Numbered from the stretch's first letter, positions 785 through 1,363 are shown. The stretch is DNA of 57,575 bases from an uncultured virus (IMG/VR IMGVR_UViG_3300035670_000052) (IMGVR_UViG_3300035670_000052:62001-119575); one strand, 5' to 3'. Notes: generated from the letters alone by a model not told the origin. Made by a program: numbers and translations.

Positions 785-813
785 TTGCTATATAGATTGA
801 ATAGGGTTATAAT
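785..813 (+). promoter_or_regulatory. Sigma70-type promoter
   Basis: TTGCTA-N17-TATAAT; predicted start about 820, directly before the riboswitch-like RNA. Confidence 0.8.
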
Positions 814-823
814 AATCCTCTAA

Positions 824-863
824 CGTTCATCCCTTTGGGACGGAAGTAAGCCGACTCGGAACG
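824..863 (+). ncRNA. Glutamine riboswitch-like aptamer 1 (glnA / Downstream-peptide family)
   Basis: P1 CGTTC...GAACG, P2 TCCC-TTT-GGGA, conserved CGGAAGTA junction; upstream of a YRG peptide gene. Confidence 0.75.
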
Positions 864-866
864 GAT

Positions 867-1035
867 CGTTCATCTATGGAAACACTCATTCTGACATGCT
901 TACAAGCACACTTAATTGCTGGGAGAGTTCATCAACAGAACATTTCCAAACAGGTAAAGAATGATTTAATTTGGGAAATAAAACAGATCTCTCCAAAGGA
1001 GTGTAAAATAGACGCAAAAGCCGACTGAAGGAACG
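867..1035 (+). ncRNA. Glutamine riboswitch-like aptamer 2 with about 130-nt insertion in the P2 loop
   Basis: CGTTCA-TCTAT(873-877)...ATAGA(1008-1012)-CGCAAAAGCCGACTGAAGGAACG mirrors aptamer 1. Confidence 0.65.
876..1028 (+). CDS. 50-aa small protein encoded within aptamer 2
   Basis: METLILTCLQAHLIAGRVHQQNISKQVKNDLIWEIKQISPKECKIDAKAD*; below the ORF-track cutoff. Confidence 0.6.
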   Translation: METLILTCLQAHLIAGRVHQQNISKQVKNDLIWEIKQISPKECKIDAKAD

Positions 1036-1067
1036 CTCTTTAACCTAAACCATTAAGGAGAAACCTA

Positions 1068-1202
1068 ATGTCTAAAGTCGTATATCGCGGTGTCGAATAT
1101 GATACCGAAGTTCGTCGCCAGCAACAGCAGGCACAACAGCAACCCCAACAATACAACGAAACCTATCGTGGTGTTAAGTTTGTGAAGGAGGGGCAAAAAT
1201 GA
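1068..1202 (+). CDS. DUF4278-like YRG-motif peptide (44 aa)
   Basis: MSKVVYRGVEYDTEVRRQQQQAQQQPQQYNETYRGVKFVKEGQK*; two YRGV motifs; AAGGAG SD; downstream of a glutamine riboswitch as is typical for this family. Confidence 0.8.
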   Translation: MSKVVYRGVEYDTEVRRQQQQAQQQPQQYNETYRGVKFVKEGQK

Positions 1203-1300
1203 ATACTTACTTCGTTCGATATTTAAAAAGAAAAGCAAAGAAGGAACAACTCCTTCATAATGCACAACTGAATATGGCAAAGCAACCACAAATTGCTTGA
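1199..1300 (+). CDS. 33-aa basic peptide
   Basis: MNTYFVRYLKRKAKKEQLLHNAQLNMAKQPQIA*; ATGA overlap with the upstream gene and GGAGG SD. Confidence 0.6.
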   Translation: MNTYFVRYLKRKAKKEQLLHNAQLNMAKQPQIA

Positions 1301-1303
1301 TTT

Positions 1304-1332
1304 GGGAGGGGACTTGATCCCCTCTTTTTTTT
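1304..1332 (+). terminator. Rho-independent terminator
   Basis: GAGGGGA-cttga-TCCCCTC followed by a T run. Confidence 0.8.
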
Positions 1333-1363
1333 ATGCTAAAATGAATTGAAGTAACTATAAAGT

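Follow-up and report, generated by a model that had tools for sequence, protein, structure and literature searches.

A small protein gene nested in a hairpin of a two-unit glutamine riboswitch leader in an uncultured virus related to T4-like cyanophages

The window analysed here, a stretch of 57,575 nucleotides, forms part of a 119,575-base IMG/VR virus record, and is related to the freshwater and estuarine T4-like cyanophages S-SRM01, DSL-LC02 and DSL-LC03 of the Kyanoviridae. On the plus strand, positions 785–1334 make up one compact unit in which a promoter-like site, a leader, a gene for a YRG peptide, an overlapping ORF and a terminator-like hairpin follow one another. Our analysis confirmed that 822–1036 is a two-unit glutamine riboswitch leader and that a small gene is nested in the first hairpin of its unit 2. 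The features of the compact unit are the following:

785–813, plus strand: sigma-70-like promoter just 5' of the leader (TTGCTA, 17-nt spacer, TATAAT; 10 of 12 consensus positions, a consensus match only)
822–867, plus strand: unit 1, a glutamine sensor (RF01739 in Rfam; score 36 bits, cut-off 35)
867–871, plus strand: 5' strand of the ligand-site helix of unit 2 (CGUUC), invariant in 48 of 48 aligned loci and complementary to 1031–1035
873–877, plus strand: 5' strand of the unit 2 hairpin (UCUAU), which pairs with 1008–1012 and holds the A and the U of the nested start codon
876–1028, plus strand: nested ORF of 50 codons plus UGA, for a predicted two-Cys helical hairpin protein
882–887, plus strand: 5' side of the hairpin stem extension (ACACUC, codons 3–4), which pairs with 999–1004 in the MFE and centroid fold
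999–1004, plus strand: 3' side of the hairpin stem extension (GAGUGU, the Glu and Cys43 codons), which pairs with 882–887
1008–1012, plus strand: 3' strand of the unit 2 hairpin (AUAGA), the paired partner of 873–877
1013–1030, plus strand: linker and junction of unit 2 (CGC, then AAAAGCCGACUGAAG), invariant or nearly so in 48 loci
1031–1036, plus strand: 3' strand of the ligand-site helix of unit 2 (GAACG) and C1036, whose partner is G843 of unit 1
1036–1060, plus strand: Shine-Dalgarno-sequestering hairpin, in which CUCUUUAA at 1036–1043 pairs with UUAAGGAG at 1053–1060 (8 bp, MFE and centroid of 815–1075)
1068–1202, plus strand: YRG gene with its own Shine-Dalgarno, for a 44-aa peptide with two YRG motifs (DUF4278-like, IF17-like)
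1199–1300, plus strand: third small ORF, 33 aa, the ATG of which overlaps the YRG stop
1304–1334, plus strand: intrinsic-terminator-like hairpin (1304–1326) and T run that close the unit

Further downstream a 250-aa ORF at 1673–2425 takes the position that in S-SRM01 belongs to an annotated thymidylate synthase (L001, from 1448 on), so that the riboswitch operon is flanked by nucleotide-metabolism genes in several relatives. The neighbourhood of P-RSM6 (L006) holds a manA RNA at 1057–1242 (RF01745, 188 bits), directly 3' of the riboswitch operon and 5' of a transaldolase gene.

In unit 1, CGUUC at 824–828 is paired with GAACG at 859–863; between them lie a short hairpin with a 3-nt loop (830–840) and the linker CGG (841–843), of which G843 is the linchpin base, and G864 stands directly 3' of the 3' strand. 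The initial annotation had described aptamer 2 as the frame of aptamer 1 with a longer loop. The difference in loop length holds, 130 nt against 3 nt, but unit 2 is not a simple second copy, the junction halves being split between the two units. All its coordinates were correct (CGTTCA 867–872, TCTAT 873–877, ATAGA 1008–1012, ORF 876–1028), as was its reading of the two ends of the gene: the ATG (876–878) starts inside TCTAT and so overlaps the 5' stem strand, and the TGA at 1026–1028 sits in the conserved junction, in GAC-TGA-AGGAACG, of which GAACG (1031–1035) is the closing strand. Positions 1013–1030 read as the codons Ala-Lys-Ala-Asp-stop, and codons 46–50 of the nested gene together with its UGA double as conserved sensor core. 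The whole nested gene is enclosed by the hairpin helix (873–877/1008–1012, extended by 882–887/999–1004). Its AUG is without a Shine-Dalgarno and lies, together with the 20 nt 5' of it, in or between three sensor helices.

This layout recurs in viruses. Scanning viral contigs with a 24-base pattern of the unit-2 junction returned at least 119 loci, and the pattern-scan loci, six phage records and the window made up the 126 sources of a loop survey in which the stem was assignable in 121. Loop length at these 121 loci is bimodal among the matches listed, with 53 short loops of 1–26 nt and 68 long loops of 128–185 nt; P-RSM6 was counted as short by the script and by eye is long, with an intact annotated 62-aa ORF. 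Among the matches listed, an ORF starts at the stem ATG, 3–5 nt into the stem strand, in each of the 68 long loops, and in 67 of them the ATG-to-TGA ORF ends at the junction TGA. The 68th (L072) has the same stem ATG, but its stop is a TAA inside the 3' stem strand. In S-SRM01 the junction TGA is replaced by GGA and the ORF is five codons longer. Nesting of an ORF from stem to core is far above chance expectation. A second nested class (L139, 345–575) was also observed, in which the unit-2 junction is 3 nt shorter and the protein ends in D-A-N-D. As loci of this type are invisible to the junction DNA pattern, the layout is commoner than the pattern scan shows. Within the genomes of 185,579 species the junction pattern was found at only 8 loci, and since all 8 lie on MAG or single-cell contigs, nothing points to the presence of the motif in a cyanobacterial chromosome.

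The content of the hairpins varies between relatives. RNA-library contigs from fresh waters (X15, X17 and X18) have the 130-nt loop swapped for a 20-nt or 8-nt hairpin within near-identical flanks, indicating that long- and short-loop forms share habitats. The hairpin of unit 1 also encloses a gene in 32 of 117 viral loci, and in P-SSM4 (L135, 148–371) there is a gene in both hairpins. These unit-1 genes belong to a related family of two-Cys proteins, the N-terminus of which often resembles a signal peptide, and end either at a stop inside the stem or in G-R-K from the unit-1 linker. At one locus (L105) the unit-2 ORF is a member of a subfamily whose other members were seen in unit 1, as though cassettes could pass from one hairpin to the other. 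As either hairpin can take a gene cassette, the sensor cores may serve as recombination anchors for small-gene swaps.

Covariation of TCTAT with ATAGA had been proposed as a check on the hairpin, and the stem is indeed conserved around the gene: across 66 unique long-loop sequences with 12 stem types (among the matches listed), 330 of 330 cells are paired, a count for which the script picked the 5' strand by demanding at least 4 of 5 pairs. Pairs 3–5 of the stem vary on both sides, and 0 of 1000 strand shuffles reach the observed pairing. The pairs were counted by script as the MAFFT alignment (A2), in which the ATGs are aligned, puts the 5' strand out of register. The stem extension shows compensatory variants in relatives, or forms with the stem a continuous 14-bp helix. 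Duplexes of the loop ends reach −7.0 kcal/mol for cognate ends compared with −4.8 for non-cognate and −4.1 for shuffled ones, in samples that are phylogenetically non-independent. RNAalifold, run on a codon-based alignment the 3' end of which is misaligned by the longer S-SRM01 ORF, did not predict the hairpin.

The interior of the loop evolves as coding sequence. Coding-type selection, the second check proposed for the loop, is specific to the frame of the ORF: in 20 equal-length sequences pN/pS is 0.23 in frame and 0.95 and 2.25 in the shifted frames, and the differences per codon position (0.37/0.19/0.52) are highest at the third. The interior codons of 35 sequences of the window's class give a mean pS of 0.677 and a mean pN of 0.277, and the dN/dS of the nested ORF has a median of 0.246 over 320 pairs, 99.4% of which are below 1. 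Among the matches listed, the frame of the ORF is the only one that is open in all 66 unique ORFs, the five others being closed in 65, 66, 66, 54 and 66 of them, the lengths of the long loops (128–185 nt) all keep the frame, and no long-loop ORF shows a frameshift or an internal stop, either of which the initial annotation had named as speaking against the gene. The fold z-score of 865–1037 is only −0.43, that is, the loop interior is without unusual structure. Taken together, frame-specific selection, invariant cysteines, a confident fold prediction and the unremarkable structure of the loop lead us to reject the reading of a spurious ORF; judged by its pattern of substitution, the nested ORF is a genuine protein gene. 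RNA-library contigs from other studies contain the whole unit 2 and ORF of a relative (855–1037, 87% alike, 24 differences) and also bridge 948–1106; these are assembled contigs only, which cannot prove transcription, and the parts that they leave uncovered carry no meaning.

The AlphaFold2 model of the nested protein is a two-helix hairpin with a pLDDT of 86, and Cys8 and Cys43 are invariant among 63 aligned proteins, despite identities to the window protein of 11–88%. Family members nested in a hairpin are 49–66 aa long. A profile search returned 835 protein clusters (90% identity) at E≤0.001; among the best 120 of the 835, 119 end in the junction-encoded D-A-x-x-D (115 in DAKAD or DAKVD), one reads through, and 119 have exactly two cysteines. 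An exhaustive HMMER search yielded 319 representatives at 50% identity, the best 150 of which include 146 small proteins: 61 carry the 5-codon junction end, 45 the 4-codon 'DAND' end, 3 read through and 37 are otherwise ended. Four long Q/T/S-rich repeat proteins returned by the HMMER search were discarded as compositional, since only repeated partial stretches of the profile match them; three have 0–4 Cys and the fourth (556 aa) is Cys-rich. The DAND-ending proteins are nested in the same manner, around the shorter junction.

By tblastn the family was found in 17 phage records, among them P-SSM4, P-SSM7, P-RSM3, P-RSM4, P-RSM6, P-SSM3, P-TIM40, S-TIM4 and metaG-MbCM1; it is found also in S-SRM01, DSL-LC02 and DSL-LC03. 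In the phage records its members are annotated as hypothetical proteins (T4-GC 430). A match to phrog_504 was obtained for 47 of the 63 aligned family members (best E 5e-25), the match of the window's own protein being weak (E 9.7e-4, 19.8 bits). For the nested protein, Pfam gave no match, ESM Atlas no usable match, Foldseek against the PDB nothing at E≤0.001, and BFVD uncharacterised cyanophage proteins only; the NCBIfam model LicT was rejected at 16.9 bits against a cut-off of 300. One of the 37 otherwise ended proteins is a free-standing homologue on a 114-kb viral contig (L137, 401–556); a GAGG Shine-Dalgarno of its own precedes it and sensor flanks are missing, which indicates that the protein can exist without need of the riboswitch.

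Rfam, searched with 700–1350, has no RF01739 match to unit 2 (865–1036) even at E≤10 (the cut-off is 35 bits), and its other weak matches in that region (miRNA, L20 leader and others) were set aside as far below their own cut-offs. Insert-free phages have the same unit-2 frame with a loop of 2–12 nt. In two of them, with the same core and junction as in the window, unit 2 scores 33.5 bits (S-CREM1, 642–698) and 35.4 bits (P-TIM68, 712–758) against RF01739, and the S-CREM1 record has both units annotated by its authors as a single glnA riboswitch. We built a covariance model (R1) from 40 insert-free unit-2 sequences; in their alignment (A3) the share of paired cells is 99%, and of the five hairpin pairs four vary on both sides. 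R1 matches the window's unit 2 with 33.3 bits (E 9e-9), anchoring its 5' strand on the internal GAGUUCAUC at 926–934, not at 867–873, with a 77-nt skip. The internal GAGTTCATC at 926–934 (codons Arg-Val-His) mimics the sensor 5' strand, and only 5 sources have the motif at that place; we therefore read the anchoring as an artefact of the insertion-length penalty, and the mimic as probably due to chance.

The bases expected of a ligand site are in place in unit 2. Its ligand-site helix is paired (867–871/1031–1035), G1014 and G1030–G1031 are present, and all of these are invariant in 48 loci; the available text of PMC6698751 describes roles in the ligand site for the linker G and for the GG before AACG. 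Unit 2 also has a hairpin with covariation directly after CGUUCA. The type-I junction, on the other hand, is divided, with the 5' half in unit 1 (CGGAAGUA) and the 3' half in unit 2 (GAAGGAACGC). Unit 2 does not combine the two E-loop halves with a P3 hairpin; it holds only the GAAGG half (unit 1 only GAAGUA), and the P3 of the model aligns to gaps or non-pairs.

The linchpin is divided in the same manner. According to the accessible parts of PMC6698751 and PMC6212724, it joins, over a long range, the last base of the three-base CGN linker to the one that directly follows the 3' strand. Within the units of the window these bases are G843/G864 and C1015/C1036, neither of which is a standard pair, and across the units they form G843:C1036 and G864:C1015. 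The first cross-unit pair is standard in 48 of 48 aligned loci (C:G in 25, G:C in 23) and in 67 of 67 unique loci counted by script, the second in 46 of the 48, and the within-unit pairs in 25 of 48 each; as the two linchpin states largely track two clades, these counts represent few independent events. Since a linchpin C stands opposite a C within unit 2, this unit may not be a self-sufficient aptamer, and the exchange of partners suggests that units 1 and 2 form one interdependent fold. All four helix strands are invariant, which is compatible with a nested or with a swapped side-by-side topology. The type-II model RF01704 scores 17.6 bits at 821–869, below its cut-off of 33, and unit 1 of P-RSM6 scores 33.1 bits against the same model.

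On the output side, the YRG peptide matches phrog_5049 at E 3e-13 and Pfam PF14105 at E 0.001 (19.8 bits, below the cut-off of 25.3), and a YRG-type gene lies downstream in 59 of 64 long-loop loci among the matches listed. The window's peptide has a glutamine-rich run (1116–1160; 11 Gln in 44 residues) that marine relatives do not have, a curious feature behind a glutamine sensor. By eye, the 33-aa ORF is similar to the C-terminal half of the YRG protein of S-CREM1, which is longer and fused (L005, 725–871), and the YRG gene thus seems to be split in the window. C1036 is the cross-unit linchpin base and also the first base of the hairpin that sequesters the Shine-Dalgarno; of 50 loci with C at this position, 45 have an MFE structure in which the YRG Shine-Dalgarno is paired. 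For the type-I glutamine riboswitch, the available text of Klahn 2018 (PMC6212724) reports an ON switch and postulates the melting, by glutamine, of a helix in which the ribosome binding site is paired with the bases that follow the linchpin C.

Based on our data we think it likely that this leader, with its genuine nested gene, represses that gene when it folds and at the same time frees the YRG Shine-Dalgarno, so that opposite outputs would arise from one nitrogen signal. With a gene inside the sensor hairpin, folding of the sensor and translation of the gene should compete on one mRNA, and it is the overlap of codons with helices that led us, as it had led the initial annotation, to propose that the nested ORF and the YRG gene control each other. 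In the fold stabilised by glutamine, three helices would bury the nested AUG together with the 20 nt on its 5' side, and folding would thereby repress the nested gene. By analogy with the type-I switch, the same fold would pull C1036 from the sequestering hairpin into the linchpin pair, and the YRG Shine-Dalgarno would be freed. Without glutamine, or as long as transcription has yet to cross the 130 nt that lead from the AUG to the strand with which it pairs, ribosomes could start on the nested gene and, once on it, would hold the sensor open. One leader would then yield two opposite outputs from one nitrogen signal. It is conceivable that the two genes are linked in a further way: a ribosome at the stop (1026–1028) would cover the 3' strand of the ligand site and the start of the sequestering hairpin, so that nested translation might switch the YRG gene on, and coupling by the terminating ribosome might replace reciprocity, blurring the 'opposite outputs'. 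A more specific version of the proposed switch, an interlocked double sensor whose exchanged halves close round a translated gene, with the nested protein made at low glutamine and the YRG peptide at high glutamine, is one that we put forward tentatively and regard as somewhat doubtful.

Other explanations of the layout deserve weighing. The loop could be a tolerated parking place in a crowded genome, the gene being translated and the sensor working with no useful mutual control between them. A protein family that also occurs free-standing, that sits in the unit-1 hairpin at 32 of 117 loci and in both hairpins of P-SSM4, and that is absent from close relatives with nearly identical flanks and a 12-nt loop does, when these cases are seen together, resemble a swappable cassette. 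A mere passenger, however, would hardly be expected to fill the loop as exactly as the ORF does in 68 of 68 loci among the matches listed, with its AUG 3–5 nt into the stem and its end in the core or stem, and among the same matches no nested ORF has a Shine-Dalgarno of its own or an in-loop spacer, unlike the free-standing copy; a ribosome could neither start nor finish without opening the sensor helices. We consider this explanation unlikely.

Quite improbable, in our judgement, is that the nested ORF acts in cis, its translation opening the sensor and the sequestering hairpin to drive YRG while the peptide itself is minor. The geometry would suit such a device, as the nested stop lies 36–69 nt (median 40) 5' of the YRG start and 8 nt before the sequestering strand (1036–1043), and the S-SRM01 ORF is longer, its stop falling where that strand ends; leader ORFs that reshape sensing leaders are known, such as mgtL in the mgtA leader (PMC12360218, in its available text). 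Strong purifying selection on the amino-acid sequence, the two invariant cysteines with a confidently predicted fold, and the free-standing homologue all point to a functional protein and argue against it. That there is no gene at all, the insert being a structured RNA extension with an accidental ORF or unit 2 an aptamer broken by the insertion and decayed, is in our view scarcely credible: the ends of the insert do pair beyond the 5-bp stem and Rfam does miss unit 2, yet the fold z-score of 865–1037 is as low in magnitude as −0.43, variation is highest at the third codon position, pN/pS is frame-specific, and the ORF-bearing loci keep the invariant core and the covarying stem. The reading that we favour remains a nested gene repressed by the folding that frees the YRG Shine-Dalgarno.

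The leader shares with the type-I glutamine riboswitch (RF01739; the Synechocystis gifB/IF17 leader, as presented in the accessible part of PMC6212724) the CGUUC/GAACG helix, the hairpin after CGUUCA, the CGN linker, the long-range linchpin pair and the GAAGUA and GAAGG junction halves, and like the gifB/IF17 leader it is the 5' leader of a DUF4278-type gene, with a ribosome binding site that can be masked by a helix 3' of the linchpin base. Unlike that riboswitch, it has no P3, its junction halves are split over two units, its linchpin is complementary only across the units, and one of its hairpin loops is 130 nt long and holds a gene. The CGC linker, the GGAACGG 3' strand and the association with a YRG peptide recall the type-II riboswitch (Downstream-peptide motif, RF01704), for which a two-piece aptamer described in the available text of PMC6698751 shows that the 5' and 3' halves need not join in the usual order; the window's leader gives weak type-II matches only, and the P2 pseudoknot helix of type II was not found in it. 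Some glnA RNAs are tandem, as noted in the accessible part of Weinberg 2010 (PMC2864571). Like these and like tandem glycine aptamers, the leader has two sensor units in series with one expression platform; unlike tandem riboswitches, its units are apparently interdependent, since they exchange their linchpin partners, and a gene can lie in the one hairpin or in the other.

ORFs are also placed in the peripheral loops of group I and group II introns, where the RNA core must still fold. These intron-loop ORFs promote the splicing or the mobility of the RNA that carries them and are not known to share codons with the catalytic core, unlike the nested gene, whose last five codons and stop are sensor core. 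With mgtL in the Salmonella mgtA leader (PMC12360218, in its available text) the layout has in common an ORF in a ligand-sensing leader and an interplay of translation and folding, which for our leader is a proposal. It differs in that mgtL is a short regulatory uORF placed in the expression platform, whereas here an aptamer helix encloses the nested ORF, which encodes a conserved protein of 49–66 aa that is subject to purifying selection and has a free-standing homologue. The proteins of PHROG 504/T4-GC 430 (e.g. PSSM4_169.3 and PSSM7_205) are of the same family as the nested ORFs, with 47 of 63 matching phrog_504; they are catalogued only as hypothetical, and the riboswitch around the gene is unmarked in the records examined. 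Searches of full-text literature returned no paper that describes a gene housed in the hairpin of a glutamine riboswitch, and the available portions of PMC2864571, PMC6212724, PMC6698751, PMC9964418, PMC9004378 and PMC12379486 do not describe the nested-gene layout.

Riboswitch aptamers are treated as non-coding, and in this leader the conserved core of one consists of five codons and a stop. The two ends of the gene build the aptamer helix, so that the same bases stand under selection for RNA structure and for protein together. The layout would provide an example from nature in which translation and ligand-dependent folding compete on the same mRNA. As RNA scans miss the second unit, the number of riboswitches counted in cyanophages is an underestimate. 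If the interlocked switch is true, a phage could steer host nitrogen assimilation both ways from one transcript of ~500 nt. The layout may also link a widespread protein family (835 clusters at 90% identity, with members in phages such as P-SSM4) to nitrogen sensing during infection. The hosts concerned are the main picocyanobacteria of oceans and lakes, and P-SSM4, one of the phages in which the gene is carried, has long been studied.
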